Origin: an uncultured bacterium
Lineage (GTDB): Bacteria; Margulisbacteria; Termititenacia; Termititenacales; CAYUXF01
Direction: 5' to 3'
Assembly: GCA_964448755.1 (NCBI GenBank)
Contig: CAYUXF010000004.1
Span: 1 to 51,672, forward strand
DNA: 51,672 nucleotides
Below the pieces are notes generated by a model. It ran no database searches. It was not told the DNA's origin and saw only the letters and a list, made by a program, of their open reading frames with translations. The position numbers were made by a program, and so were the translations under genes. Shown here piece after piece: positions 1 through 17,760 of the stretch; within the stretch, counting starts at the first letter, position 1, and each line of letters starts with the position of its first letter.

Positions 1-54
1 GTTGCGACTTTAGCAAAAGATGAAATACTTGATATTTTAGATCAAATTAGTGCT

Positions 55-1428
55 TTAGGTGTTGATTTTGTTTATTTTTTTGGCTGTTATTAATCCGGAA
101 ATAAAAACACCCTGTATTGCTGACATGGGGTTTGTCCAGTGTCCGCAAAGATAAAGATTTTTTAGAGGTGTTTTATTGGCTAAGCTATTTTTTCCTGAGA
201 ACTTTGGATGAGACGCGGCGCCAAAAAAGGCGCCTGAAATATTATTGGTTAATTTTAGATAAGAATCTGGTCCAAGAAAAACCATTGTTTCTATTTTGTT
301 TTTGATTTCTGGAAATAATTCCAATATTATTTTTAAATAAATACTTTTTATTTTATTTTTTTCTTTGATAGAGAGTTTTGATCTATTGTTTGGTAAAAAC
401 CCGATTATTCTTATAATGCTTTTGCTTTTTGGTGCTATTTTTTTTGAATGAATTGTTGGTATATTTACAATATATTTATACTTATTTAAATATAGGCCGA
501 CTTTATTTTTTTCTTTACTGATATCTGTGTTTATCCCAAGATATAAGGCACAACCGGAGAGACTTGGCTTTAGTTTTTTTATTTTTTTTAAATAGTCGCT
601 GGGGATATTTTTTGGTGATAAAAGTTTTTCAAAAGTTAACTGTGGACTAATATTGGAGATAACAATATTGGCAGTTTTTTGATTTTTATTATTATGATAG
701 GTTATTTGGGCAAGATTATTATTAATTATATTTATTTTTGTGACATTGGCGTTGTATATTATTTTTCCACTATAGTGTTCGAGATTTTTTACAAGATTTT
801 GTGCAAAATCTGCCATCCCTTTTTGGGGATAGAAAGCCTGATAATAAAAAATGCTGCCAATCAAAGTGGCTATGTTCAAGGCAGATGCTTTATTAGCTTT
901 AAGTCCCAGATAATTGCTGAATGCGGACAGGTGTGTTTTTAGTTGTTTGTTTTTAAAGTAATTGTCGAGCATTTTTTTATAAGTTATTGTATTAATATCT
1001 GTGATTTTGCAGTTGTTATAATAAGACAATATATTTTTAATATCTTCAAAAAAATCAGAAATGGCTTTTTTTTCTTGAGGATATTTTTCTTGCAATGAGT
1101 AGATGAATTTATCTGCCGGTAAATTGTTTTTGATTTTTAGGCTTTCAATAAAGAAATTATCGAACTCGGTCAATTTACTGAATTTTGTTTTAAAAGGTAG
1201 CTGATCTAGATAATGACCAACGGGATTGTTTTTGTCGCCGACAGCGGTTAGAAAGTGTGGTCCTATATCAAAGGTGTATCTTTTTTTTTTTAAAGAAGAG
1301 CAGTAGCCGCCGGGAAAGCTATTTTTTTCAAGAATTGTTACATTGTAATTGTTTTTTGCCAATTCTATGCCGCAGATCAATCCTCCTATGCCGCTACCGA
1401 TAATTATAACTGTTGGTTTACTTTTCAT
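55..1428 (-). CDS. FAD-dependent oxidoreductase, phytoene-desaturase (CrtI/CrtD)-like family
   Basis: 457-aa ORF. N-terminal dinucleotide-binding motif VIIIGSGIGGL...ILEK. C-terminal NLYLCGHWTNP...ISG is typical of the CrtI/amine-oxidase fold. Its start overlaps the upstream KS-like gene by 11 nt, so it is the last visible gene of the minus-strand operon. Confidence 0.75.
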   Translation of the reverse strand: MKSKPTVIIIGSGIGGLICGIELAKNNYNVTILEKNSFPGGYCSSLKKKRYTFDIGPHFLTAVGDKNNPVGHYLDQLPFKTKFSKLTEFDNFFIESLKIKNNLPADKFIYSLQEKYPQEKKAISDFFEDIKNILSYYNNCKITDINTITYKKMLDNYFKNKQLKTHLSAFSNYLGLKANKASALNIATLIGSIFYYQAFYPQKGMADFAQNLVKNLEHYSGKIIYNANVTKINIINNNLAQITYHNNKNQKTANIVISNISPQLTFEKLLSPKNIPSDYLKKIKKLKPSLSGCALYLGINTDISKEKNKVGLYLNKYKYIVNIPTIHSKKIAPKSKSIIRIIGFLPNNRSKLSIKEKNKIKSIYLKIILELFPEIKNKIETMVFLGPDSYLKLTNNISGAFFGAASHPKFSGKNSLANKTPLKNLYLCGHWTNPMSAIQGVFISGLITAKKINKINT

Positions 1429-2461
1429 ATTTTTTTAATATTATAGTTGAGATCCTGCCGTCAGAATTAATATTATTAATTAGGATCGTTTTGTGTTTGT
1501 TTGTTGTTAGATTTAGATTGTTTAGTCGCTTGTTTTGAAATATTAGTAAAGCAACAATTATTTGTAAAGGCCCAGAGAGACCAAGCCCTTCTTTGGTATG
1601 TTTTTTTACTGCCAATGTCGGCTGTTCTTTGCCAAAGATTTTTTCAATGGAGTTTTGTTCAGCTGTATCTATTTCGGGATTTAAATTATTTTTATTTGTT
1701 AAAATCAGGTTTATGTCTGAGTAGGTTAGTTTGTTTTCATTCAAAATATCCTTGATGTTTTCTTCAACATTTTTATAGATATTATTGTTTTGATTTGTTC
1801 GATAGCCAATTATTTCTGCCATGATAGGTGTTTTTTCTTTTACAGCGGTTTTTGTCCTTTTTAATTGAAATAATGCGGCACCTTTTCCAAAACCGTAAAA
1901 TTTTTTACTGGGATTAAAAATATATTTAAGTTCTTTATTGTATTCATCTCCGCCGCCGCAGATGATTTCATGCAAAGATGAATTATTGTTTAAATAAAAA
2001 TAGCCCATTCCTATCGCATCAATACCTGAACAGAGACCGCTGCTGATAGTTTCGCACAATGTTAATTTTTTTTCTGTTAGAGCAATTCGGCAGGCAGGGA
2101 TATTTAGTACTGTGTCGGGAAATGCGCCGGGATTTATTCCATAATATCCCTTTTCTTGTGCCGATCTTTCAAACGTGTAAATACTGCTTAAACTGGATAG
2201 TGCAGAACCAATAACAATATTTTTTAATGGTTTTTCTAAATATTTTTTTAATAATACCGAAGCAAGTAATAAGTATTTGCTTAAATTGCTTTCTAAAGAA
2301 TTAAGCGGAATGCTTTTTTGTAATAGATTGGTTACTATATTTTCAAAATTTTCAGATTTTTGATTCTGTTGATTTACAGATGCAAGGTTTTTAATAAAGT
2401 TATCCAGACCGATTCCCAGAGGTGAAACTATTTCTGCTGCGGTTATAGCAATAGAGCTCAT
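1418..2461 (-). CDS. Ketosynthase-like partner subunit (chain-length-factor-type, probably non-condensing)
   Basis: 347-aa thiolase-fold ORF. It keeps a Cys in GLCSGIDAI, but the HGTGT catalytic-His block of the neighbouring KS aligns to LTNKNN (His replaced). An ATGA start/stop overlap with the upstream KS is typical of KS/CLF pairs. Confidence 0.65.
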   Translation of the reverse strand: MSSIAITAAEIVSPLGIGLDNFIKNLASVNQQNQKSENFENIVTNLLQKSIPLNSLESNLSKYLLLASVLLKKYLEKPLKNIVIGSALSSLSSIYTFERSAQEKGYYGINPGAFPDTVLNIPACRIALTEKKLTLCETISSGLCSGIDAIGMGYFYLNNNSSLHEIICGGGDEYNKELKYIFNPSKKFYGFGKGAALFQLKRTKTAVKEKTPIMAEIIGYRTNQNNNIYKNVEENIKDILNENKLTYSDINLILTNKNNLNPEIDTAEQNSIEKIFGKEQPTLAVKKHTKEGLGLSGPLQIIVALLIFQNKRLNNLNLTTNKHKTILINNINSDGRISTIILKKYEK

Positions 2462-3678
2462 TGTTTATTCTCTGAAAATTTTTTAATGATAATAGATGTA
2501 TTAATGCCGCCAAACGCCAGGGCGTTAGACATGACAATGTTTAGCTCTTTTTTTCTTGCTTTGTTTGGTATGTAGTCAAGATCACATAATGGGTCAGTTG
2601 TTTCATAATTAATTGTTGGTGGCATCAAGTTGTCTCGCAATGCCAGGCAACAGGCCACTGCTTCAATGGCGCTGGCTGCTCCCATGCAATGACCTAGCAT
2701 TGATTTGATAGAACTGATAGGCGTTTTGCAAGCAGTAGTTTTAAAAACGTTTTTTATGGCTTTTGTTTCAATCTGGTCATTAGTTAATGTTCCGGTGCCA
2801 TGGGCGCTAATATAATCAATATCTTTTGGTTGTATCTTGGCCATTTTCAAGGCATCTTTCATGGCCTGGCTGAGCCCTAGTCCTTCCGGGTGAGGGGCTG
2901 TAAGATGATAGCTGTCGCAATTTAGACCATACCCAATTATTTCACCGTAAATCTTAGCTTTTCTTTGAAGGGCAGTTTCTAAAGTTTCTAATAAAAGAAT
3001 GCCACTCCCTTCTCCAATTAAGATGCCAGATCTGTTCTTATCAAAAGGCTGAACTTTTTCTTTGGCCATAGAGCGTAATTTTATAAAGCCGGCATAGGCG
3101 GTATAAGAAAAAGAGTCACTTCCGCCAGCTAGTGCATATTGAACAATTCCATTTTTTATTAGTTCTGCAGCTCTGATTATTGCGTAGTTGCCAGCAGAAC
3201 AAGCCATAGGGAAGGTAAATGTTGGTCCGTTTAAATTTAATTCTTTGTTGATACCAGCGGCTATCTTCCAGGCTGGATATATTTGATATAAAAGTTTTTT
3301 TCGTTTAGGGGCAAGAGTTTTGTTGAATTTTTCATAAAGAACGTTACCTTCACCGCCGGTAACACCAATACATACTGCGGTTTGCTTGTTGTTAAGTGAA
3401 ATATTATTTTGGCAGGCCATTTTGGCGGCGACAATGGCAAATTGCGCGGCCGGTCCATAGTTTTTTAATGAACTTTTTTTAATAAAAAGCTCTGGCTGAA
3501 AAGAGTTTATTTCTCCACCGTGGGTAAAACTAAAATCTTTAGTATCATATTTTGTAATTGGTGAAATTCCACTTTTTCCGGTTACTATATTTTTCCAGAA
3601 GATATCCGGTTCGTTACCTAGTGCAGAGACTATACCCAGTCCGGTAATTACTATTCTGGTAGGTTTTTTGTTTTCCAA
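2458..3678 (-). CDS. Beta-ketoacyl-ACP synthase, KAS II (FabF)-like, intact catalytic triad
   Basis: 406-aa ORF with active-site Cys in MACSAGN, His in SAHGTGT and His in MLGHCMGAAS. It lies 3 nt downstream of an ACP gene. Confidence 0.9.
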   Translation of the reverse strand: MENKKPTRIVITGLGIVSALGNEPDIFWKNIVTGKSGISPITKYDTKDFSFTHGGEINSFQPELFIKKSSLKNYGPAAQFAIVAAKMACQNNISLNNKQTAVCIGVTGGEGNVLYEKFNKTLAPKRKKLLYQIYPAWKIAAGINKELNLNGPTFTFPMACSAGNYAIIRAAELIKNGIVQYALAGGSDSFSYTAYAGFIKLRSMAKEKVQPFDKNRSGILIGEGSGILLLETLETALQRKAKIYGEIIGYGLNCDSYHLTAPHPEGLGLSQAMKDALKMAKIQPKDIDYISAHGTGTLTNDQIETKAIKNVFKTTACKTPISSIKSMLGHCMGAASAIEAVACCLALRDNLMPPTINYETTDPLCDLDYIPNKARKKELNIVMSNALAFGGINTSIIIKKFSENKQ

Positions 3679-3681
3679 TTT

Positions 3682-3924
3682 TTATAGTTTTTTTGTTAAA
3701 TAGGCTTCAACTAAGGCAATGAATTGACCGACAGATTTTAGGTCATAGAGGTCGTTATTATCTATTTTAATGTTATATTTAGATTCTATATCAGAAACCA
3801 ATTCTAACATTTTTAAAGAATCAGCCTCAAGTTCTTTTAAAAAAAGAGTTTGAGGCGTTATTTTTTCAATAGGTTTTTTAAATGAAGTGGCAATAATTGA
3901 AAATATACCTTGTTGAATACTCAC
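3682..3924 (-). CDS. Acyl carrier protein
   Basis: 80-aa ORF with phosphopantetheine attachment motif LEADSLKMLELV (DSL). GTG start preceded by AGGAG about 8 nt upstream. Confidence 0.85.
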   Translation of the reverse strand: MSIQQGIFSIIATSFKKPIEKITPQTLFLKELEADSLKMLELVSDIESKYNIKIDNNDLYDLKSVGQFIALVEAYLTKKL

Positions 3925-3983
3925 GAATAACTCCTAAATTTTATACAAAAAAATATTCTATAGTATATAATATAATTTACAAC
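3925..3983. promoter_or_regulatory. 59-bp divergent intergenic region between the ACP operon (-) and the GNAT operon (+)
   Basis: This is the only non-coding gap between the two divergent operons. It contains TATAAT (3970-3975) only 8 nt upstream of the ATG at 3984, so that mRNA would have a very short leader or none. No clear -35 element was identified. Confidence 0.35.
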
Positions 3984-4562
3984 ATGTCATATTTACATAC
4001 TAATTTTGCAAAAATAGGCACAAAAAATTTATTTTTAATGGATTCTTTGCCTGCTGATCTGGAAAAAGTTAAGAATTTTTTTAAAAATAATAAAGATGTT
4101 CTTAATTACTCTAGTTGGCAGGATATTTACCAACAAGACGAAGGGCTCTCTTTTTTTGAAAAATCATTAAGGACACAGTTTGAATATCCGCGAAAAAGTT
4201 TTATTTTAGGCGTTGTTTCTAATAATAATCCTGCTGAAATGATAGGTGTTTGTAGTATATGTATTGATGAAGAAAAAAAAGAGGGTATTATTAGACTAGC
4301 TCTTGCCAGGAATATTCAGGGGCTCTTTTATTCTTTAGAAGTAATAGAGGCTCTTTTGGAATTTGGGTTTCAGGTTTTAAACTTTCATAAAATTATTTCC
4401 TTAGTAGATGTAGATAATGATATTTTAAAAAAAATATATTTGCGAGCAGGCCTTAAAGAAGATGGGAAATTACTGCAATATTTGTTTTATGGTAATTCTT
4501 GGCACGATCAATATTTGTTTTCTATTTTGCACAAAGATTGGCTGGAGCTGAAAAAAAGATGA
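3984..4562 (+). CDS. GNAT-family N-acyltransferase (RimJ/RimL-like)
   Basis: C-terminal GNAT core: ...FGFQVLNFHKIISLVDVDNDILKKIYLRAGLKEDGKLLQYLFYGNSWHDQYLFSIL. The ORF track starts at 3897 but that overlaps the ACP gene; the internal ATG at 3984 (MSYLHTNF) is preferred. The start is uncertain. Confidence 0.65.
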   Translation: MSYLHTNFAKIGTKNLFLMDSLPADLEKVKNFFKNNKDVLNYSSWQDIYQQDEGLSFFEKSLRTQFEYPRKSFILGVVSNNNPAEMIGVCSICIDEEKKEGIIRLALARNIQGLFYSLEVIEALLEFGFQVLNFHKIISLVDVDNDILKKIYLRAGLKEDGKLLQYLFYGNSWHDQYLFSILHKDWLELKKR

Positions 4563-5134
4563 ACAAAACAATAATGAAATTATCTGAATATTCTGTGAAA
4601 GAAATAGACTTTGATGATTTTGCTGCCTGCGCAATTTTTATAAGAAATAATCCTGATTTATTATCTTTTGATGGCTGGGGAAAGATAAAAAATATAGAAG
4701 AATTCAATTATTGTTTTCACAAATATCTGGTTGAAAAGCATGAAAACAAGAGTATTTATTCTATTTATCAAATAATTGATAATGATTCTGAAATAATAGG
4801 TTTTTGTGGATTTAAGTTAATTGATAAAACTTTCCTGATGACGGCAATTGGTCAAGGTGAGGCGGCTCTGTTATTTTGTTTTTCTGCAGAAATAGAAAAG
4901 ATCATTAAAAAAGAAATTCTATCTGAATTTATACGCTATGGGTTTAAAAAGTTAAATTTAAAACGTCAAAGATTTTTGGTTAGCGTTGATAGTGAAGAAG
5001 GGATCTCTTTTATTGCTGAATTGAATTTTATTAAAGAGGCGTTGCTTAGAGAACATTATTTTGCGGATAATGGTTGGCATGATTGTTTTTTGTATGCTGC
5101 GGTTAATTCTGTTTATCCAGGAGTAGCTAATTAA
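4559..5134 (+). CDS. GNAT-family N-acyltransferase (RimJ/RimL-like), tandem paralog
   Basis: ATGA overlap with the previous gene (ATG 4559, TGA 4560-4562). GNAT core: YGFKKLNLKRQRFLVSVDSEEGISFIAELNFIKEALLREHYFADNGWHDCFLY. Confidence 0.65.
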   Translation: MNKTIMKLSEYSVKEIDFDDFAACAIFIRNNPDLLSFDGWGKIKNIEEFNYCFHKYLVEKHENKSIYSIYQIIDNDSEIIGFCGFKLIDKTFLMTAIGQGEAALLFCFSAEIEKIIKKEILSEFIRYGFKKLNLKRQRFLVSVDSEEGISFIAELNFIKEALLREHYFADNGWHDCFLYAAVNSVYPGVAN

Positions 5135-5863
5135 ATGGTTTTTTTTGCCAGAGACAGGCTATTTAAAAACAATAAAAATTATCCCAAAGTTTTTAAGTTT
5201 AATGCGCTGGTTTCCCAAGTGTTTGATAACATGCTCAAGCGCAGTGTCCCTTTTTACTATAATATTCAAAAAGAGATCTGTTATTTTGCTAAAAAATTCA
5301 TCAAACCAAATACCAATGTTTATGATCTTGGCTGTTCAACCGGCTATACTGTCCGTAAAATTGCTAAAAACTTTAAAAAACAAAATATAACTTTATGGGC
5401 CGTTGATTATTCAAGCGAATTGCTCACTAGAGCGAAAGATCGTTTAAGAAAATACAAAAACATTAACTATATTAATTGTGATCTTAATAAAGATTTTAAA
5501 ATTTCTGGAGCCAGCTTTGTTGTTGCCAACTTAGTTTTACAGTTTTTAAAATATTCTTCCAGACAGAAACTTTTGAAAAATATTTATTCAGGTCTTCAGC
5601 CCGGCGGTTGTTTTATAATGGTTGAAAAATTGAGAAACGATAATTTTTTTCTGGAGAATATTTTTGTGGATCGTTACTATTTTTTTAAACAAAAAAACCG
5701 GTATTCAAGAGAGGAGATTGTTCGCAAAGAACGAGCGCTGAAAAGTATTTTATCTCCACTGACAATGCAAAAAAATATAGAGCTTTTGCAAAAAGCAGGC
5801 TTTTCTAATATAGAAGTATTTTTTAGGTGGTTTAATTTTTGTGGATTTATAGCGGTAAAATAA
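5135..5863 (+). CDS. cmoA: Carboxy-S-adenosyl-L-methionine (Cx-SAM) synthase, CmoA family
   Basis: 242 aa, collinear over its full length with E. coli CmoA as I recall it. Matching blocks: VFDNMLKRSVPFYYNIQ / VFPDMIQRSVPGYSNII; VYDLGCSTG / VYDLGCSLG; NLVLQFL..RQKLLKNIYSGLQPGG / NFTLQFL..RQALLDKIYQGLNPGG; YSREEIVRKERAL / YSELEISQKRSML; FFRWFNFCGFIAVK / WFQCFNFGSLVALK. Confidence 0.85.
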   Translation: MVFFARDRLFKNNKNYPKVFKFNALVSQVFDNMLKRSVPFYYNIQKEICYFAKKFIKPNTNVYDLGCSTGYTVRKIAKNFKKQNITLWAVDYSSELLTRAKDRLRKYKNINYINCDLNKDFKISGASFVVANLVLQFLKYSSRQKLLKNIYSGLQPGGCFIMVEKLRNDNFFLENIFVDRYYFFKQKNRYSREEIVRKERALKSILSPLTMQKNIELLQKAGFSNIEVFFRWFNFCGFIAVK

Positions 5864-5867
5864 AGAT

Positions 5868-6866
5868 ATGTATAGTGAAATATTTTCAAAAATAGCTACT
5901 CCGCAACTAAACGATAATGTTGTTGAGCGTCAAAAAAACAGATTATTTTCTTCAAATATACCTAAAATGATTGAACTCTTTAATCTTAGTGCAGCGCCTG
6001 TTATTTTAGATATTGGCGCAGGGACCGGTCAGTATAGCTATGCTTTTGCTGAGTATTTACAAGATAATGCCACTATTTATGCGGTGGAGGTTTTTAAGGA
6101 TAGGTATGATTACATAAAAGATCAAGTGGCTCTTAGAAATTATAAAAGTATTTTGCCAATGTTACTTTCTAGAAGTAATGATGATGAATTTTATTTTAAT
6201 AACAGTTATGACCTGATATTTTTGGGTAACAGTTTTGAATATATTAATAATAAGCAAAATTTTCTATCAAAATTAAGAGATAAGTTAAAAGAGCATGGTA
6301 AACTGGCAATAATTATGCATCGTGATATTAGCCCTTTTACAGAAGAGGATATTTTGGATAACGCTGGGTTGTTAAAGGCCTTATTAGATGAGAAACTGGA
6401 TAGTATATTTTATTTATCGGAAAAGAAAGAACCGCTGGCAAGCCTGAATTATTTCTTTAATGATTTAGACTGGACTGCCAAATATTTTCGCTATTGCCAG
6501 CAATTAAAATGGCTTCCTGTAAGCCAACTAGATGATCTGCAAAAAAGAACTTTAATGGGAATTATCAGTTTTTTAAAACGTGAAGAGAATATTTTTGATG
6601 ATAATTTTGAGATAAAAGACCCTGCCTTGATTACACCAAAAATAAATTTGATGTTTAAAATAGTTAATAAGTTAGTTTTTAGTGATCATTATAAACAATA
6701 TTTACGTGGAGATATTTTCAAGGAGAATTTTTTCTCTGATTTTAACAGAATGCAAAGCAGTGCTTTCTTGCAAGAGATAAAAGAAGTCATGGCTGCGGCC
6801 GGATATGGTTTTGCTGGTGTTTATGATTTTATTCCTTGGTATTATTTAGTAATTTTTAACAAGTAA
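5868..6866 (+). CDS. Class I SAM-dependent methyltransferase with a C-terminal extension of about 170 aa
   Basis: Motif I VILDIGAGTGQYS at residues about 45-57, plus LIFLGNSFEYI and GKLAIIM blocks. The domain layout differs from CmoB, whose GxGxG motif sits near residue 130, so it is not an obvious CmoB ortholog. Confidence 0.7.
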   Translation: MYSEIFSKIATPQLNDNVVERQKNRLFSSNIPKMIELFNLSAAPVILDIGAGTGQYSYAFAEYLQDNATIYAVEVFKDRYDYIKDQVALRNYKSILPMLLSRSNDDEFYFNNSYDLIFLGNSFEYINNKQNFLSKLRDKLKEHGKLAIIMHRDISPFTEEDILDNAGLLKALLDEKLDSIFYLSEKKEPLASLNYFFNDLDWTAKYFRYCQQLKWLPVSQLDDLQKRTLMGIISFLKREENIFDDNFEIKDPALITPKINLMFKIVNKLVFSDHYKQYLRGDIFKENFFSDFNRMQSSAFLQEIKEVMAAAGYGFAGVYDFIPWYYLVIFNK

Positions 6867-6888
6867 CATGTTAAGATAGTAGTTATAT

Positions 6889-7917
6889 ATGATTGAAACT
6901 GAAAATAATATCACTAATATATCTGATCCGGTAATCAAAAGTAATTGGTGCAATAAATTTGAAATTCCTTTAACAATGCTACAAACTGATTCTATTTTTG
7001 ATATTATTCAATCTGTAAAATACGGGGAATATATTCAAAGTGTTTATTTGCCTCTTTATGGGTTTGACGGTTTTTCTGGTAGACCTTTTTTTAAGAAAAC
7101 TAATGACAATCAAGTTGTAACTGTACCAGGCTATCAAAAGACAAAAGAAGAGTGGATCAGATTGATTAAAAACGTCGCTCAATACAAGCCTGTAACACTT
7201 ACAGTTCCTTTTTCAAAAAATATAAATTTAATTAAAGAATATATTGATTATGGCGTAAGTGAGATCATGATCAATCAATATTGGCCGGAACTTGATCAGG
7301 TTAAAGACAAGATCAAAATATCAAGATCTATTCTTGCTTATCATGATTCAGATGAGCCCATTGATGATCGTTTTGATGCAGTGATTATTCCCTATCGTAA
7401 AACTATGGACATAGAATGGTTAGAAAAGAATAGCAAGAAATTTGAGCTTATTGCGATCATAAATAATTATTGTGTAATAGAGTGCCCTTTGCAGAGTTAT
7501 AAAGAGAAGCTAATGCATAATTTTTATCGTGGTATTTTCCCTGTAAATAATGAGATCATGCCGTTTACTAAAAATTGTCTTAGATATGGCAAAACGACAT
7601 CTGCTATGTTGCCTAGAGATATTATTATCAAACTGAGTAAGTATATTTCTCGTTATAAATTAGTTGAAAGAGCATCTTCTCCCGCTGCTTATATTAGCTC
7701 TTTGAATTATTATATTTATAATGAACCTTTTTGTTTTGATTCTTTTAATTCTTCTGATTGGGTAAGAGAAGGTTTTAGTGCCGAGAAGATGGCTAGGATA
7801 ATGAAAGATAAAGAAGATCATTTTAGAGGATCAAACCTGGAAACACTTAATTGTAAATTTCAATGTTCTAGCTGTGATAGAAAGTGCTATAGTATTAATG
7901 ACTGGAATGATGAATAA
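6889..7917 (+). CDS. Cys-rich hypothetical protein, tentatively a U32-like barrel with a C-terminal Fe-S type Cys cluster
   Basis: 342-aa ORF. The pattern FEIPL...SVYLPLYGFDGFSGRP...KPVTLTV...GVSEIMI loosely follows the beta/alpha pattern of the U32 protein at 15809 and of the C-terminus of the 1556-aa protein. C-terminal NCKFQCSSCDRKC has spacing C-x3-C-x2-C-x3-C. There is also CVIEC. Confidence 0.35.
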   Translation: MIETENNITNISDPVIKSNWCNKFEIPLTMLQTDSIFDIIQSVKYGEYIQSVYLPLYGFDGFSGRPFFKKTNDNQVVTVPGYQKTKEEWIRLIKNVAQYKPVTLTVPFSKNINLIKEYIDYGVSEIMINQYWPELDQVKDKIKISRSILAYHDSDEPIDDRFDAVIIPYRKTMDIEWLEKNSKKFELIAIINNYCVIECPLQSYKEKLMHNFYRGIFPVNNEIMPFTKNCLRYGKTTSAMLPRDIIIKLSKYISRYKLVERASSPAAYISSLNYYIYNEPFCFDSFNSSDWVREGFSAEKMARIMKDKEDHFRGSNLETLNCKFQCSSCDRKCYSINDWNDE

Positions 7918-7966
7918 TAGATTTTTTAAAGACATTAATATATAATTCAAAACGAGAGGAATAATA

Positions 7967-8542
7967 ATGACTTACCAAAATTACATGGATTACACTAATA
8001 AATCACCTGATTATTCAGATCATACTAACTGGAATGGTTCTGCCTGGGTAGCTAATTATCGTGATCATCAGAATTATACTATAGATGATGGTGTTGCCCC
8101 TGTCACCAATGATCGTCAATATGTTTATAATATTAATACCCCAGCTAATGCTTTTACACAGGAATCTTATATTAAAGATCAGATTAATAATCTTAAAACC
8201 TTAAGGGACGATACAATAGAGTTAGCCACCCGCAAAGTTACATCTACTGGTGGAACAAATACTCCGGATTCGGTAAATAGTTATAATAAGGACACCGATT
8301 TTGAAGAGGCAGATTATGCTATCCAGCAGCAGGTAGAAGAGACCATTGCCAATGTCAAGGCTCTTTGGCAGTCTATGAAGGGAAACAACGATAATAACTG
8401 GTCTGGCTGGCCGGCAGATGAGCAAGACGGGCAAAGAAGAAAAGCCAGTGACTATAATATTTTGCGTGATAAGTTGCAAGATTTGGCACAGACAAATAAG
8501 CCGACAGGTTATGCTGACCATAAAAATATTGGTACGCCATAA
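7967..8542 (+). CDS. Hypothetical 191-aa protein with N-terminal aromatic-X-(Asn/Asp) tripeptide arrays; candidate rSAM substrate
   Basis: Strong SD (GAGAGGA) 6-7 nt before the ATG. No signal peptide or TM segment. Residues 3-39 read YQN YMD YTN kspd YSD HTN WNG sa WvaN YRD HQN YTI. Y-x-D-H-x-N occurs three times (residues 16-21, 31-36, 182-187). Confidence 0.6.
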   Translation: MTYQNYMDYTNKSPDYSDHTNWNGSAWVANYRDHQNYTIDDGVAPVTNDRQYVYNINTPANAFTQESYIKDQINNLKTLRDDTIELATRKVTSTGGTNTPDSVNSYNKDTDFEEADYAIQQQVEETIANVKALWQSMKGNNDNNWSGWPADEQDGQRRKASDYNILRDKLQDLAQTNKPTGYADHKNIGTP

Positions 8543-8550
8543 CTAATTAG

Positions 8551-8814
8551 ATGGCTATTATAAAAAAGTCTATCTCAAAAAAAAATTTACCAAAAAATGT
8601 TACATGCTCTTGCTGCGGTAAAACGCTTAACGAGATCGTTGTTTTAACTGAGGTTTTGTTGGATGTCTATAGCTGGTATGTTAATGATTCTAAAAAACAG
8701 TTGGAAAACATTAATGGCCTCTGGAAAAAGAATGGTGAGTATTTTTGTGAGCTCTGTTTTGCAAAATATGTAAAAACCATAGAAAAATTCTATAAAGATT
8801 GTCGCAAGGCTTAA
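8551..8814 (+). CDS. Small Cys4 zinc-ribbon protein (87 aa)
   Basis: CSCCG (residues 19-23) and CELC (residues 66-69) form a split zinc-ribbon pattern, and there are six Cys in total. It is tightly packed between the 191-aa ORF (8-nt gap) and the rSAM gene (6-nt gap). Confidence 0.55.
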   Translation: MAIIKKSISKKNLPKNVTCSCCGKTLNEIVVLTEVLLDVYSWYVNDSKKQLENINGLWKKNGEYFCELCFAKYVKTIEKFYKDCRKA

Positions 8815-8820
8815 TTTTTT

Positions 8821-10143
8821 ATGTTTGAAAATATTTATGAGGTTATTTTAAAAGTAACTCGCGATTGTAATTTAAATTGTCAGTATTGTTATTTAGGCGA
8901 CAAAAAACAGTATGCCGGCGAACGGATGAGTTTTACTGTTTTCAAAAAACTGATTGATCAAATTTATTTAGACAAACATATTCGTAATAAAAAAGAGAGA
9001 TTTAATGGTCAGCTACAGATAGTTTTTCACGGCGGCGAACCTACTTTGCTGGGGATATCTAGGCTGGAAAAATTTATTAAGTATGCCAAAGCCAAACTTC
9101 CCTATGTCCGGTTTGGTATGCAGACAAATATGTTAGTAATAGATCAGCAATGGGTAAACTTTTTTAAAAAATATAATATTTCACCGGGTATTAGTGTAGA
9201 TGGTAATTTAAAAAAGGAAAATGCTTTGCGTTTACCGGGATTTGATTTTACAGAAAAATTAAATTTGCTTAAAAAAAACAAGATCAGGTTCGGGACACTG
9301 ATGGTCTTAAGTAGTCAAAATATCAAAAATTTTTCTAAAAATTTAATGACATTTATTAAAAAATATAAGATCTCCTCAATTAAAGCCAATTTTGTCGAAA
9401 ATATGGCCAAACCAGAATTTTGTTATCCAGAAGTGACTGCCGACCAAATGTATCAACATGTTTTTTTGCCGACGATGGCCTTGTTTTTTGATCAAAATAA
9501 ATTATATGAATCAAATATTGAACATCTTATTGATAAATATATTAATAGTTTACTGTATAAAGAGTCTGCGGCTAAAACTTGTTCACATACTATTTGTCAT
9601 GCCAAATTTTGCGGCGGGGGTAATGCGATTGTTGAGGTTGAACCAACTGGTGAAATTCTTTTTTGTGGCCGCTGGAATAAAATTAATAAAGTTAATTTAA
9701 TGAATGATCTAACTTCTTTTTTTGATCCCTTTGGTATATCTTCTTATAAACGCGTTTTTGATCTGCAATTGCAAAAAGCGACAGCTGTAAGAGAATTAGG
9801 CTGTGATAGTTGTCCCGCTGCCGGTATTTGCAATTATGGCTGTTTGGCTTTTGCTTATGTTAAATATCAGGGGCAGATCAAAATTCGTTCAGAACTTATC
9901 TGTGATTACTATAAAAAAGTCATTAAATATTTTCAGGCACGTTATCATCAAATAATTTATATTTATAGCATGATCACTAAAAAAGAGATAATAGTGGCTA
10001 GAGGAAAAGTATTAATTGATTTCCCTATGGCTATGATTAATGGTGTTAGTAAGAAAAAGTTACCAGCCGGTTTGGCTTGGCAAAAAGTTAATAATAAAAA
10101 TTATTTAACAATTTCCAATAAATATTTAAAAGATTTTTTATAG
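8821..10143 (+). CDS. Radical SAM enzyme with canonical SPASM domain (peptide/protein maturase type)
   Basis: CNLNCQYC (CX3CX2C) at residues 16-23; GGEPTLLG. The C-terminal SPASM signature is visible directly: C-GGGNAIVEVEPT-G-EILF-C, then C-DS-C-PAAGI-C-NYG-C, then a downstream Cys (ELICDYY). Confidence 0.9.
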   Translation: MFENIYEVILKVTRDCNLNCQYCYLGDKKQYAGERMSFTVFKKLIDQIYLDKHIRNKKERFNGQLQIVFHGGEPTLLGISRLEKFIKYAKAKLPYVRFGMQTNMLVIDQQWVNFFKKYNISPGISVDGNLKKENALRLPGFDFTEKLNLLKKNKIRFGTLMVLSSQNIKNFSKNLMTFIKKYKISSIKANFVENMAKPEFCYPEVTADQMYQHVFLPTMALFFDQNKLYESNIEHLIDKYINSLLYKESAAKTCSHTICHAKFCGGGNAIVEVEPTGEILFCGRWNKINKVNLMNDLTSFFDPFGISSYKRVFDLQLQKATAVRELGCDSCPAAGICNYGCLAFAYVKYQGQIKIRSELICDYYKKVIKYFQARYHQIIYIYSMITKKEIIVARGKVLIDFPMAMINGVSKKKLPAGLAWQKVNNKNYLTISNKYLKDFL

Positions 10144-16737: not shown

Positions 16738-17760
16738 ATGCAGGTTTTAGATATAATGCAGTTAGAGTTTAATAAATTGAAACAACAGGACTTGCCTTTC
16801 CATGTGTTGGTTAAATTTAGCGGAGGTAAAGATAGTTCATATTTATTATATTTAATGAAAGAAAAATATGGGTTAACTCCGTTAGCTTTTTCAGTGATCC
16901 ATCCTTTTGTGGGGAAACAAGCCCTTTCCAACATGAAAAGAGTTTGTCGAAAATTAAAGGTCAAGTGGCAGCCGTGTTTTGTTGATAAAAAAGAGTTCTA
17001 TCAATATATGAGTTATGGCCTCAAGAATTATCAAAAATATAATACAAAATATCACCAGGCTGATCTTTATGGTTGTAGGCTCTGTTGTTCGGTTTATAAT
17101 ACGCTAGCTTATAGAAAAGCACTGGAATTAAATATTCCTTGTGTGATCGATGGTAGTGATTTTAATCAGCTGGGTTTTCCCTTATTTATACAAGGTTGTT
17201 CAGTCAAGGAAGAGCTGAATAAGGATGAAACTTTCTTTGGTTCTTATGAGCGGATCCTTCAGGATCTTCAACAGCAAAAATCGCTTAAGCCTATATATTT
17301 ATCGGTTTATGCCAAAATGCCGGATAAGACTTTCCCGGATTATGTTGCTCCGCTTTCAATAATTGAATATGACCCTGAAAAAGCTAAGTTGTTGCTGGAA
17401 GCAAAAGGGATAATTAAGTCTAATAAATTGTTTGTTGAAAAAACCAACTGTACGGTTCGCCATCTTTTTGCCCACCTAGGGTTTAAGTATTTTAATTGCC
17501 ATCCCTATCAGGAACACGTTTTGCGGATGGCTGACTCTGGTCGCCATGGTTTTACTCGTGATAAGGTGAGCGCCTATTTTGTAGAATTAAAAAATTTATT
17601 AAATTATCTAGCTAAAAATCCAGGCTTAAAAAATAAAGAGCTAAAGCAGCTGTATGCTAATTATCCTGTGCTGGCTTTGCGCCATAACTGTTCTTTGCCC
17701 TGGCTGAAAGATTTACAGCAGCTGCATAGATATGCGGAATATTTAGATGTTAAACTTTGA
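16738..17760 (+). CDS. PP-loop ATP pyrophosphatase (adenine-nucleotide alpha-hydrolase), resembling N-acetyl-sugar amidotransferases
   Basis: PP-loop SGGKDS in VLVKFSGGKDSSYLLYLMKEKYGLTPLAF. CRLCC motif and IDGSDFNQLG block. The overall pattern resembles the WbpG/PseA-type amidotransferase family, but TtcA/QueC-like roles cannot be excluded. Confidence 0.65.
   Translation: MQVLDIMQLEFNKLKQQDLPFHVLVKFSGGKDSSYLLYLMKEKYGLTPLAFSVIHPFVGKQALSNMKRVCRKLKVKWQPCFVDKKEFYQYMSYGLKNYQKYNTKYHQADLYGCRLCCSVYNTLAYRKALELNIPCVIDGSDFNQLGFPLFIQGCSVKEELNKDETFFGSYERILQDLQQQKSLKPIYLSVYAKMPDKTFPDYVAPLSIIEYDPEKAKLLLEAKGIIKSNKLFVEKTNCTVRHLFAHLGFKYFNCHPYQEHVLRMADSGRHGFTRDKVSAYFVELKNLLNYLAKNPGLKNKELKQLYANYPVLALRHNCSLPWLKDLQQLHRYAEYLDVKL

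Follow-up and report, generated by a model that had tools for sequence, protein, structure and literature searches.

The window, the whole 51,672-nucleotide stretch of DNA analysed here, begins at a contig end, 54 nt past the stop codon of a gene for a CrtI-like flavoenzyme. The features relevant to this analysis are listed below.

1..93, plus strand: tail of a short radical SAM N-terminal fragment (~67 aa if contig C25 is joined, from translations)
55..1428, minus strand: CrtI/CrtD/CrtISO-family FAD enzyme, 457 aa (PF01593, 77.1 bits; PF13450)
1418..2461, minus strand: dead, shortened ketosynthase (KS) partner, chain-length-factor-like, 347 aa (triad positions Leu/Asn/(Lys)/Glu)
2458..3678, minus strand: active FabF-like KS, 406 aa (PF00109 and PF02801; Cys-His-His intact)
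3682..3924, minus strand: private acyl carrier protein (ACP), 80 aa (GTG start; Ser36 in D-S-L; PF00550, 42.3 bits)
3925..3983, no strand: divergent intergenic region between the ACP and GNAT1 genes, 59 bp
3984..4562, plus strand: GNAT1, 192 aa, RimJ/RimL/SpeG type (Acetyltransf_3; PF13302, 40.3 bits)
4559..5134, plus strand: GNAT2, 191 aa, divergent paralogue of GNAT1 (PF13302, 24.5 bits; cut-off 25.4)
5135..10143, plus strand: remainder of the operon, encoding a CmoA-like enzyme, a second methyltransferase, a U32-like protein, a 191-aa protein, an 87-aa Cys protein and a radical SAM/SPASM enzyme

All six of the ORFs described in a first-pass annotation, made from the letters alone, were present at their assigned places. 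The matches listed above confirm the ACP with a DSL motif, the intact KAS II-type KS and the CrtI-like flavoenzyme in the operon, and every Atlas neighbour of the flavoenzyme belongs to the CrtI/CrtD/CrtISO family. The two tandem, ATGA-coupled RimJ/RimL-type GNATs were also recovered. GNAT2 lies just under the PF13302 cut-off but its paralogy with GNAT1 (25 % identity, E 1.1e-7) backs the assignment, and it matches PDB 3igr (RimJ-type) weakly (E 0.0016). The claim that the minus-strand genes form one operon is borne out by the tight junctions. In the order ACP, KS, KS-like and CrtI-like, with the ACP first and the CrtI-like gene last, the ACP and KS genes are 3 nt apart, the KS stop and KS-like start overlap as ATGA, and the KS-like and CrtI-like genes overlap by 11 nt. 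By these junctions, the four genes are translationally coupled. On the plus strand, the GNAT1 start was corrected to 3984 and the GNAT1 stop overlaps the GNAT2 start, again as ATGA. The 59 bp said to separate the divergent operons is the gap 3925-3983. Promoter-like hexamer pairs were found for both strands (+ 3942-3971 and - 3990-3962, each 10/12), and the count of such sites, 34, is only slightly above the 22.4 ± 5.6 of shuffled sequence, the stretch being AT-rich.

Contig C25 joins the window via a 55-base end overlap, the first 55 bases of C25 being the reverse complement of window positions 1-55. The radical SAM fragment, whose CxxxCxxC part sits on C25, is convergent with the CrtI-like gene, the two overlapping at the 3' end of the latter. 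A low-GC island of ~28 kb runs on from the window into C25 (GC 0.28-0.33 versus 0.395 for the genome), and the four-gene module, the GNAT genes and the gene for the 191-aa protein all lie inside it. Other island genes encode a PseH-like GNAT (GNAT3), a WbuX-like amidotransferase, a class-III aminotransferase and a 1556-aa glycosyltransferase. The island looks foreign and is rich in peptide- and sugar-modifying genes. Domain searches found no KR, DH, ER, AT or TE in the window's island or in the first 9.3 kb of C25, and for this DNA the absence noted earlier stands. However, the window opens at a contig end, 54 nt past the CrtI-like stop.

The KS scores 399.5 bits against the NCBIfam FabF equivalog TIGR03150, where the cut-off is 493.75. 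Its best PDB match is 9s5h_B (402.5 bits), with 313 bits for the best FabF, that of B. subtilis. Identity reaches 49-50 % with Scalindua proteins, against 39 % with the genome's own FabF and 34 % with a KS encoded on contig C65. In a quick tree of 48 rows, it falls in a 17-row clade (SH-aLRT 99) with KSs from Scalindua, Omnitrophota, Thermodesulfovibrionales and G144, a genome of the same phylum; the clade also takes in Actinobacteria proteins. The FabF of the genome itself belongs to the other clade (31 rows), among FabFs from the same order. No KS more than 44 % identical was found in 40 related genomes, and none of the 8 genomes examined from the same order has the module. Judged by its sequence, the KS is a member of an amxFabF2-like clade and not a housekeeping FabF. 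This distinction was the one on which the first-pass annotation had staked its reading beforehand. The genome carries its own fab cluster on contig C28 (plsX-fabH-fabD-fabG-acpP-fabK-fabF; FabF, 601 bits), which includes the housekeeping acpP gene, as well as FabZ on contig C70, and the KS therefore cannot be its only FabF.

For the KS-like protein, no Pfam match was obtained at E≤0.01, and it scores 48.8 bits against TIGR03150. Leu occupies its Cys position (a Cys follows one residue later), with Asn at His298 and Glu at His333, and only Lys328 is kept. The earlier description of a shorter, ATGA-coupled partner with the first His replaced was right as far as it went; however, the loss covers the whole triad (Cys to Leu, His to Asn, His to Glu). 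The Leu/Asn/Lys/Glu pattern agrees with the Asn298/Lys328/Glu333 listed for the anammox proteins Kuste3606 and Kuste2805 in the available part of PMC2649909 (Table 2). Among the best 148 matches to a profile of the partner, 132 are unfused proteins. Of these, 100 lack both Cys163 and His298 and have Lys328 and Glu333, and none has an intact triad. A spare copy of the housekeeping FabF and AcpP accompanied by a decaying duplicate is thus highly improbable, as the residue pattern is family-conserved rather than the product of random decay, every frame is open and coupled, the complete fab cluster is on C28, and none of the 29 relatives' FabFs sampled falls in the clade of the KS.

The fold model of the KS-like protein is confident (pLDDT 90.3, pTM 0.92) and resembles KS chains (VIA Z ~40, rmsd 2.6 Å over ~340 residues). 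The predicted complex of the KS with the KS-like protein scored 0.94 and the best of three controls 0.00, with runs agreeing in at least 94 % of contacts and a partner pLDDT of at least 88. Of 157 solved complexes, 116 reach the mark applied, as do 2 of 215 mismatched pairs. However, we note that this result may reflect likeness alone, because KS/chain-length factor (CLF) and FabF dimers have already been solved. The pair is accordingly described here as a predicted KS/chain-length-factor-like heterodimer.

The architecture, a private ACP with an active KS and an inactive KS-fold partner, is shared with type II polyketide pairs, namely Iga11/Iga12 (6kxd), the actinorhodin pair (1tqy) and AntDE (6smo), at Z ~38-40, and kinship with type II polyketide or aryl-polyene systems had been suggested for this locus. 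The scores place the closest relatives elsewhere. The ishigamide KS Iga11 gives 296.9 bits on the KS, and the actinorhodin KS, AntD and 7f27, the KS from the aryl-polyene paper, give 196, 208 and 204 bits. With the partner profile, 9s5h_C scores 120.5 bits and the next match 54.1, whereas the CLFs 1tqy_B and 6smo_C reach 26 and 31 bits. In addition, the partner has Leu and not the Gln of aromatic CLFs, and searches of the island turned up neither a cyclase or aromatase nor a KR/DH pair, an aryl-starter ligase or a Lol-like exporter. A KS/CLF pair making an aromatic or polyene pigment is very unlikely, and the closest relatives are instead the anammox amxFabF2/amxFabFmut pair, according to both the 9s5h scores and the tree.

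PDB 9s5h/9s5i is probably the anammox heterodimer amxFabFhet, given the entry composition, a Val at the Cys position and the score of 9s5h_B against a Ca. Scalindua arabica protein (677.9 bits, versus 370.7 against B. subtilis FabF). The activity of amxFabFhet was described by Granatino et al. (bioRxiv 10.64898/2026.05.19.726425), and the code '9S5' does not occur in the available portion of that text. The genes in question belong to anammox Cluster I, suspected to carry out the start of ladderane lipid synthesis. As given in the accessible part of PMC4790861, the order of kuste3603-3608 is ACP, FabZ, FabF, non-canonical FabF, phytoene desaturase and radical SAM; the corresponding names in the preprint excerpt (10.64898/2026.05.19.726425) are amxACP, amxFabZ, amxFabF2, amxFabFmut, a phytoene-dehydrogenase homologue and a B12 radical SAM enzyme.

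The window's operon has the same order of ACP, active KS, dead KS and CrtI-family flavoenzyme. Its KS and partner are each nearest to one chain of 9s5h, and the partner shares Asn298/Lys328/Glu333 and an aliphatic residue at Cys163, in addition to the predicted heterodimer. We therefore consider the minus-strand operon to be a minimal acyl-chain module of the anammox Cluster I type, a stripped-down relative, with a probability of roughly 0.7. There are several differences. The module includes neither a FabZ variant nor a B12 radical SAM enzyme, and neither was found in the island. The partner is 347 aa long, compared with ~412, with loops deleted. The host is not an anammox bacterium, and the module sits in a peptide/sugar-modifying island beside GNATs. 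The ACP scores 48-60 bits against ACP NCBIfam models, every one under its cut-off, and 25-28 bits against 9s5i_E (25.3) and 7auf versus 39 for AcpM; in these comparisons it shows no specific likeness to amxACP. For the flavoenzyme, the NCBIfam scores (carotenoid isomerase, 132.7 bits; crtI_fam, 109.7; CrtD, 106.6) are all far under the cut-offs, and the gamma-carotene desaturase PDB 4rep gives 82.7 bits. None of its 23 matches at E≤1e-20 is an anammox-named relative, and Kuste3607 is taken here as a counterpart by position. Kuste3336 and Kuste3607 are reported in the available part of PMC4790861 to have made no lycopene.

Relatives in other genomes were also examined, with synteny resting on equal contig sizes and on G144. 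The closest KS-like, KS and CrtI-like relatives pair as P0002 with P0054 (26136), P0003 with P0055 (3502) and P0004 with P0177 (14165). G144 carries ACP-KR-FabA/Z-KS-KS-like on one contig and, on a second, a KS-like gene followed by several CrtI-like genes.

The most likely function of the module is to make a specialised, probably unsaturated acyl-ACP together with the housekeeping FabD, FabG, FabZ and FabK. The ACP would be activated by the genome's AcpS-type transferase (a PPTase gene is found at C25 end/C59) and loaded with malonate by FabD. The heterodimer would then prime itself through decarboxylation of malonyl-ACP, an activity measured for the anammox pair (10.64898/2026.05.19.726425), and elongate the chain, with the tunnel wall of the dead partner fixing how long it grows. 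The reductions would fall to the housekeeping FabG, FabZ and FabK, since the island lacks such enzymes, and the need to borrow FAS II enzymes, foreseen earlier, fits the fab cluster on C28 and FabZ on C70. The flavoenzyme would desaturate, isomerise or saturate the ACP-bound chain. What results would be a specialised acyl-ACP, probably unsaturated and short to medium in length, for use within the ~28-kb island, and the chain may either be transferred to an amine by GNAT1/GNAT2 or enter membrane lipids.

In the second case, the chain would pass into phospholipids or olefins via housekeeping acyltransferases, and the proximity of GNAT and radical SAM genes would be due to mosaicism of the island. 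There is precedent in the accessible parts of two papers. Rattray et al. 2009 (PMC2649909) describe, for Desulfotalea psychrophila, Geobacter and Pelobacter, FASII clusters that include phytoene-dehydrogenase-like and SAM enzymes, and found polyunsaturated hydrocarbons in Desulfotalea; many phyla other than the anammox bacteria are reported in the Cariaco Basin study to carry and express antiSMASH 'ladderane' clusters (PMC9902471). Such clusters have been proposed to yield unsaturated chains by a route that needs no oxygen (PMC2649909, PMC9902471). Compared by description only, they likewise bring together FabF paralogues, a private ACP and PF01593 flavoenzymes outside anammox bacteria, but are larger, with their own FabG/FabZ, a ligase and a membrane protein, whereas the window's module is reduced to four genes. 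The inclusion of Omnitrophota, Thermodesulfovibrionales and Actinobacteria in the KS clade and the location of plsX in the fab cluster also favour lipid or hydrocarbon tailoring. However, the module lies in a foreign-looking island away from lipid genes and was missing from the 8 same-order genomes, and this fate is possible, if somewhat unlikely.

Transfer of the chain by GNAT1/GNAT2 from the ACP onto an amine, of the 191-aa protein, its fragment or an amino sugar, would be ribosomal or glycan lipidation without a thioesterase, and no thioesterase or other off-loading enzyme was found in the ~29 kb searched. The divergent operons are close together, all within one low-GC island. The CoA-pyrophosphate loops of both GNATs are degenerate, GNAT1 keeping only the first of the two motif A glycines and GNAT2 neither, and GNATs accepting only ACP-bound acyl donors are on record, namely GdvG and SbzI in the available excerpts. 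The situation recalls the lipo-RiPP GNAT acyltransferases (selidamides, goadvionin GdvG, lipoavitide LpvE) in having GNAT-fold enzymes beside fatty-acid-type genes and a candidate ribosomal substrate, a likeness of context and not of sequence. However, the best solved relatives of GNAT1 are SpeG spermidine acetyltransferases (44 bits), which act on small molecules, a comparison of GNAT1 with 145 other genomes of the phylum gave no close orthologue (23 % identity at best), and GNAT2, under the Pfam cut-off, may be inactive. No GNAT lies beside the related KS cluster of G144 in the flanks covered. The trio of 191-aa, 87-aa and radical SAM proteins also occurs in the related genomes G073 and G075, where the 20 kb around it hold no homologue of the KS, ACP, CrtI-like, GNAT1/2, CmoA-like, second methyltransferase or U32-like proteins. 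Acyl transfer by the GNATs is thus doubtful overall, and lipidation of the 191-aa protein is one possible form of it. An amino-sugar acceptor has as much support from context, in the form of GNAT3, the WbuX-like amidotransferase, the aminotransferase and the giant glycosyltransferase.

The six genes that the first-pass annotation had placed at the start of the window were confirmed, with corrections, and are listed here.

Genes of the proposed acyl module and of the divergent GNAT pair (window coordinates)
3682-3924, minus strand: ACP, 80 aa, GTG start, Ser36 in D-S-L; PF00550, 42.3 bits
2458-3678, minus strand: ketosynthase (KS), 406 aa; PF00109 and PF02801
1418-2461, minus strand: KS-like partner, 347 aa; TIGR03150 (fabF), 48.8 bits
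55-1428, minus strand: CrtI-family flavoenzyme, 457 aa; PF01593, 77.1 bits
start at 3984, plus strand: GNAT1; Acetyltransf_3, 40.3 bits, above the Pfam cut-off
start at 4559, plus strand: GNAT2; 24.5 bits, below the Pfam cut-off of 25.4

The minus-strand genes make up a module of 3.9 kb in which all four are coupled. The ACP stop and the KS start are 3 nt apart, the KS and KS-like genes have an ATGA in common, and the KS-like and CrtI-like genes overlap by 11 nt. GNAT1 and GNAT2 are likewise coupled by ATGA, and the divergent gap between GNAT1 and the ACP gene is exactly 59 bp; promoter-like sites in this gap are in no excess over the expectation for AT-rich sequence. The KS-like protein has no Pfam match at E<=0.01. 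The CrtI-like protein scores 107-133 bits with the carotenoid isomerase, crtI_fam and CrtD models, far under their cut-offs, and an Atlas search put it in its broad family only. The earlier statement that no KR, DH, ER, AT or TE is present holds for the island in the window and for the linked DNA of a second contig, C25.

The KS has an intact Cys-His-His triad. Were this KS and its ACP the only housekeeping FabF and AcpP of the genome, a dedicated role would be hard to defend, as the first-pass annotation had noted, but this identity was rejected. The KS and the ACP both score under their model cut-offs (399.5 bits for the KS with TIGR03150, the FabF equivalog, cut-off 493.75), and contig C28 carries the genome's own plsX-fabH-fabD-fabG-acpP-fabK-fabF set, whose FabF scores 601 bits and is above the TIGR03150 cut-off. 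An extra KS (contig C65), a FabZ that is the sole FabA/FabZ match of the genome (C70) and an AcpS-type gene (C25/C59 junction) are found elsewhere.

Among solved structures, the best match to the KS is chain B of 9s5h/9s5i (402.5 bits), followed by B. subtilis FabF (313), the ishigamide KS (297), AntD (208), 7f27 (204) and the actinorhodin KS (196). The first-pass annotation had compared the KS/ACP set with type II PKS and aryl-polyene systems; 196-208 bits for the last three against 402.5 for 9s5h_B do not bear this out. We infer that 9s5h and 9s5i are the amxFabF2/amxFabFmut pair of anammox bacteria. A Candidatus Scalindua arabica protein scores 677.9 bits with 9s5h chain B versus 370.7 with B. 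subtilis FabF, and 9s5i also contains an 80-aa ACP chain; the text of the preprint on the pair (Granatino et al., bioRxiv, May 2026, 10.64898/2026.05.19.726425) contains no '9S5' code. According to that preprint, amxFabF2 and amxFabFmut, both encoded in Cluster I (kuste3603-3608, the suspected start of ladderane lipid synthesis), form a heterodimer resembling a KS and chain-length factor, as seen in structures. They decarboxylate malonyl-ACP only as a pair and favour C6-C8 probes over C16, and the heterodimer was also crystallised with C8-ACP.

Four metagenome proteins share 81, 71, 61 and 55 % identity with the KS, and proteins with the names Scalindua, Omnitrophota, Thermodesulfovibrionales and Actinobacteria RBG_13 share approximately 50 %. 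Its identity is 49-50 % to two Scalindua proteins, 45 % to the KS of G144 (a genome of the same phylum), 39 % to the genome's own FabF and 34 % to the KS on C65; in 40 related genomes no KS is more than 44 % identical to it. A tree was obtained with a quick IQ-TREE search only and rooted at its midpoint. Its 48 rows were the window KS, 15 of 120 listed matches picked by name or closeness, the genome's two other KSs, the G144 KS and, from related genomes, the 29 best KS matches. The window KS and its four relatives fall with Scalindua, Omnitrophota and G144 sequences in a clade of 17 rows (SH-aLRT 99), and the genome's FabF groups with FabFs of same-order genomes in the other clade, of 31 rows (99). 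On these sequence comparisons, the KS is placed as a predicted active, FabF-like enzyme of the amxFabF2 lineage.

In its KS-like partner, the first catalytic His was correctly reported as replaced, but the loss is wider, and alignment with the KS and the genome's own FabF shows the entire triad to be gone. The triad positions hold Leu (with a Cys one residue later), Asn and Glu, and Lys328 is retained. Its three relatives likewise have L/I-N-K-E. The same Asn/Lys/Glu pattern is tabulated as Asn298/Lys328/Glu333 for Kuste3606 and Kuste2805 (Rattray et al. 2009, PMC2649909), and the triad positions of 9s5h chain C are Val, Asn and Glu in the printed alignment. The dead KSs of anammox bacteria have been described as having Cys changed to an aliphatic residue or Thr and the two His changed to Asn, Glu or Cys. 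When the profile of the KS-like family was compared with solved structures, 9s5h chain C scored 120.5 bits and the next match 54; 7f27 scored 43 and the chain-length factors (CLFs) AntE and of actinorhodin 31 and 26.

Close relatives of the partner are few. Only three (73, 59 and 39 % identity) were found among 5.8 billion clustered proteins, in a search with 52 matches at E<=0.001 out of 7999 candidates scored, and four scans of genome and metagenome contig sets (alignment A2, protein P0002) recovered no DNA of family relatives. The profile, run against 1.84 billion representatives, gave 3273 matches at E<=0.001, 835 at <=1e-10 and 21 at <=1e-30. Residues were surveyed in the best 148 of the 3273 (P0003 and P0004 excluded), after leaving out 16 fusions longer than 600 aa. 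Among the remaining 132, Cys is missing from 128 and the first His from 131, 104 have both Lys and Glu, all three features occur together in 100, and none has an intact triad. Their median length is 399.5 aa. By this survey, dead KS partners form a large class, of which the window protein (347 aa) is a shortened member. The 16 fusions (P0197, P0200, P0204, P0211 and 12 others) are 745-834 aa long with the partner as second half, and appear to be natural single-chain KS and partner proteins.

A fold prediction for the partner from a four-sequence input was poor (pLDDT 52) and was set aside in favour of one from a 27-row alignment (pLDDT 90.3, pTM 0.92). This model superposes on KS chains with Z of about 40 and an rmsd of 2.6 Å over about 340 of its 347 residues, FabF, Iga11, actinorhodin and other chains being tied. 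The predicted complex of KS and partner scored 0.94, versus 0.00 for the best of three controls, and passes a mark attained by 116 of 157 complexes with solved structures and by 2 of 215 mismatched pairs. At least 94 % of contacts recur between runs, with a partner pLDDT of at least 88. As KS dimers and KS/CLF pairs have been solved, the pass indicates likeness and is no proof of binding.

In Kuenenia, Cluster I runs kuste3603 (ACP), 3604 (FabZ), 3605 (FabF), 3606 (non-canonical FabF), 3607 (phytoene desaturase) and 3608 (radical SAM) (PMC4790861). The window has this gene order minus the FabZ and radical SAM genes. It has the neighbouring KS paralogue with an abolished triad and, directly after the KS pair, the phytoene-dehydrogenase homologue (PF01593/CrtI family). 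The private ACP is unlike the amxACP of Cluster I, scoring 25.3 bits on 9s5i_E, 27.6 on 7auf and 39 on AcpM. Also unlike Cluster I, the island lacks a FabZ variant and a B12-dependent radical SAM enzyme of its own; a search of window 1-27.4 kb and C25 1-11.6 kb turned up neither, and the radical SAM genes present in the island are of the SPASM type. The second methyltransferase of the island has three weak, generic PDB matches, none of them an anammox-labelled entry. In our judgement the best explanation, with a probability of roughly 70 %, is a module of Cluster I type, composed of KS, dead KS, ACP and flavoenzyme, that makes a specialised acyl-ACP. How CrtI-family enzymes act on the chain is still unknown for anammox bacteria according to a 2016 expression study (PMC4790861).

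Other systems with paired KSs were considered and rejected. An aromatic type II PKS is contradicted by Leu, not Gln, at the Cys position and by low scores to 1tqy, and no cyclase or aromatase families were found in the island. Aryl polyene (APE) clusters comprise an ApeO/ApeC-type pair, KR and DH pairs, an aryl starter enzyme and export or attachment genes. A second KS is also part of APE clusters, as an abstract states for two KSs. The accessory families are missing from the island, and the scores of 7f27 are 204 bits (KS) and 43 bits (partner profile). A flavoaffinin preprint proved to have no bearing on the locus.

Cores of Cluster I type are already known outside anammox bacteria. FASII-like clusters with phytoene-dehydrogenase-like and SAM enzymes were described in Desulfotalea, Geobacter and Pelobacter in 2009 (PMC2649909), and antiSMASH 'ladderane' clusters were found, and found to be expressed, in nine non-anammox lineages (PMC9902471), a list in which the phylum assigned to this genome does not appear. 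The window locus is the smallest form so far. What is new is the reduction to four genes, the truncated partner, the lack of FabZ and a B12 radical SAM enzyme, the back-to-back GNAT pair, and the position of the module in an island of foreign appearance whose genes modify peptides and sugars.

The closest KS-like, KS and CrtI-like relatives lie on contigs of equal length, namely 26136 (P0002 and P0054), 3502 (P0003 and P0055) and 14165 (P0004 and P0177), and P0175, a CrtI-like protein with 80 % identity, is on an 8067-bp contig. KS-like matches at E<=1e-5 occur in 5 of 146 genomes of the phylum set (this genome counted), and only G144 has a real relative (30-37 % identity). One G144 contig (L043, 3324-7587 and 12700-13838) encodes an ACP, a FabG-like KR, a FabA/FabZ-like DH, a KS that scores 346 bits with the window KS, and a KS-like protein, and this cluster is broken by a toxin-antitoxin insertion (AbiEii and HEPN/nucleotidyltransferase genes). 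A second G144 contig (L044, 1-5109) carries another copy of the KS/KS-like junction, 83 % identical to the first, and both copies are at contig ends. After the junction, L044 encodes at least three CrtI-like proteins (two of the genes are split into halves), a ThiS-like protein and a 667-aa reductase of the old-yellow-enzyme type. This fuller G144 version points to a reducing logic akin to that of fatty-acid synthesis, and to a true association of the KS pair with CrtI-family enzymes.

The Cluster I core appears in a small non-anammox genome, reduced to four coupled genes without FabZ and the B12 radical SAM enzyme. This supports the view that the product of the core may be a generic acyl-ACP, short or unsaturated, and that whatever is specific to ladderanes would be done elsewhere. 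The module is small and should express easily, and offers a simple system for studying the effect of the CrtI-family enzyme on an ACP-bound chain.

The CrtI-like stop lies 54 nt from the start of the window, which is a contig end. Window 1-55 recurs in exact reverse complement as the first 55 bases of C25, and on no other contig. As 43 groups of contig ends in the assembly have such 55-mers in common, we consider the overlap to be an assembly-graph link. With C25 joined, the CrtI-like gene would be read as the end of the operon, and its 3' end is overlapped by a convergent N-terminal fragment (approximately 67 aa) of a radical SAM gene. This fragment, with CxxxCxxC (window 1-93, plus strand; C25 1-200, minus strand), appears to be left over from a paralogue of the radical SAM genes on C25 and may have caused the assembly break.

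The GC content is 0.315-0.334 for the first 20 kb of the window and 0.283 for C25 1-8 kb, compared with 0.395 for the genome, and these stretches fall within the lowest 1-4 % of the genome's 5-kb windows. They are therefore treated as one island of approximately 28 kb, foreign-looking in composition, of which about 8 kb lie on C25. In total, it holds five radical SAM/SPASM genes plus the fragment, four U32-like units, three GNATs and a giant glycosyltransferase.

Further genes of the island
Window 16738-17760, plus strand: WbuX-like N-acetyl-sugar amidotransferase, 58.5 bits (cut-off 203.2)
C25 1099-2088, plus strand: U32-like paralogue, 424 bits to the window U32-like protein, adjoined by a radical SAM/SPASM gene
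C25 5190-5732, plus strand: PseH-like GNAT3, 60.3 bits (cut-off 93.1)
C25 part of the island: ankyrin protein
C25 part of the island: three radical SAM/SPASM enzymes
C25 part of the island: unknown protein
C25 part of the island: class-III aminotransferase
Island: multi-domain glycosyltransferase, 1556 aa

The unannotated U32-like protein of the window (342 aa, 6889-7917) is likewise encoded beside a radical SAM/SPASM gene. The WbuX-like amidotransferase and PseH-like GNAT3, both below cut-off, suggest that the island may make modified amino sugars.

GNAT2 is a paralogue of GNAT1 (25 % identical). The best solved relatives of GNAT1 are SpeG spermidine acetyltransferases (44 bits), and GNAT2 has a single weak PDB match, of RimJ type. 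GNAT1 has matches at E<=1e-5 in 20 of 146 genomes of the phylum, the best beyond its own genome being 23 % identical. In an alignment with nine such GNATs, the G-x-G motif for the CoA pyrophosphate is half kept in GNAT1 and absent from GNAT2 and GNAT3, which would fit either an unusual donor or lost activity.

The first-pass interpretation, in which the module supplies a chain that the GNATs load onto the 191-aa protein, its fragment or an amino sugar, is partly supported, the supply of a chain faring better than its transfer. Lipidation of this kind is possible, and ACP-dependent GNATs are on record (GdvG and SbzI), but we consider GNAT-mediated transfer of the acyl chain unlikely, and genome comparisons so far lend it no support. 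The 191-aa protein has homologues in 3 of 146 genomes, and in the two besides this one (G073 and G075) its gene lies together with those for the 87-aa protein and the radical SAM enzyme. Local phmmer searches (E<=1e-3) of the 20 kb around these two trios gave no relatives of the ACP, KS, KS-like, CrtI-like, GNAT1, GNAT2, CmoA-like, MT2 (second methyltransferase) or U32-like proteins. The trio is thus a separable unit, kept without GNAT or KS genes in 2/2 related loci. As acceptor, the 191-aa protein is no more likely than an amino sugar or a small amine. The adjoining GNAT pair is a concrete and cheap test case for carrier-dependent N-acylation.

A joint reading, which we regard as improbable, would make the whole island of about 28 kb one pathway in which the GNATs move the acyl chain onto a protein or a sugar coat. 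A stripped-down KS/dead-KS module of ladderane type would build, on the ACP of its own, an acyl chain that is short and unsaturated, and GNAT1 and GNAT2, having largely lost the CoA-pyrophosphate loop, would take the chain directly from the carrier. The acceptor would be the 191-aa protein, cross-linked by radical SAM chemistry, or an amino-sugar coat added by the giant glycosyltransferase, and the product a protein-sized, ribosomally made lipo(glyco)protein. If true, this would be the first assigned use of the Cluster I core outside anammox bacteria.

Two further observations concern GNATs of related genomes. In each of four same-order genomes, the best GNAT1-like match has a single in-frame TGA, and recoding, a selenoprotein or a shared pseudogene, any of which may apply, cannot be told apart.

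GNAT1-like matches with an in-frame TGA
G075, contig C14, 36444-36665
G079, contig C76, 4408-4629
G080, contig C21, 13193-13414
G078, contig C47, 946-1155

In a locus of another genome of the phylum (L057; G121, contig C2, 236103-239642), a RimJ-like GNAT of 307 aa has a C-terminal tail that resembles a carrier protein and includes D-S-L, and would be a fusion of a GNAT to its own acyl carrier.
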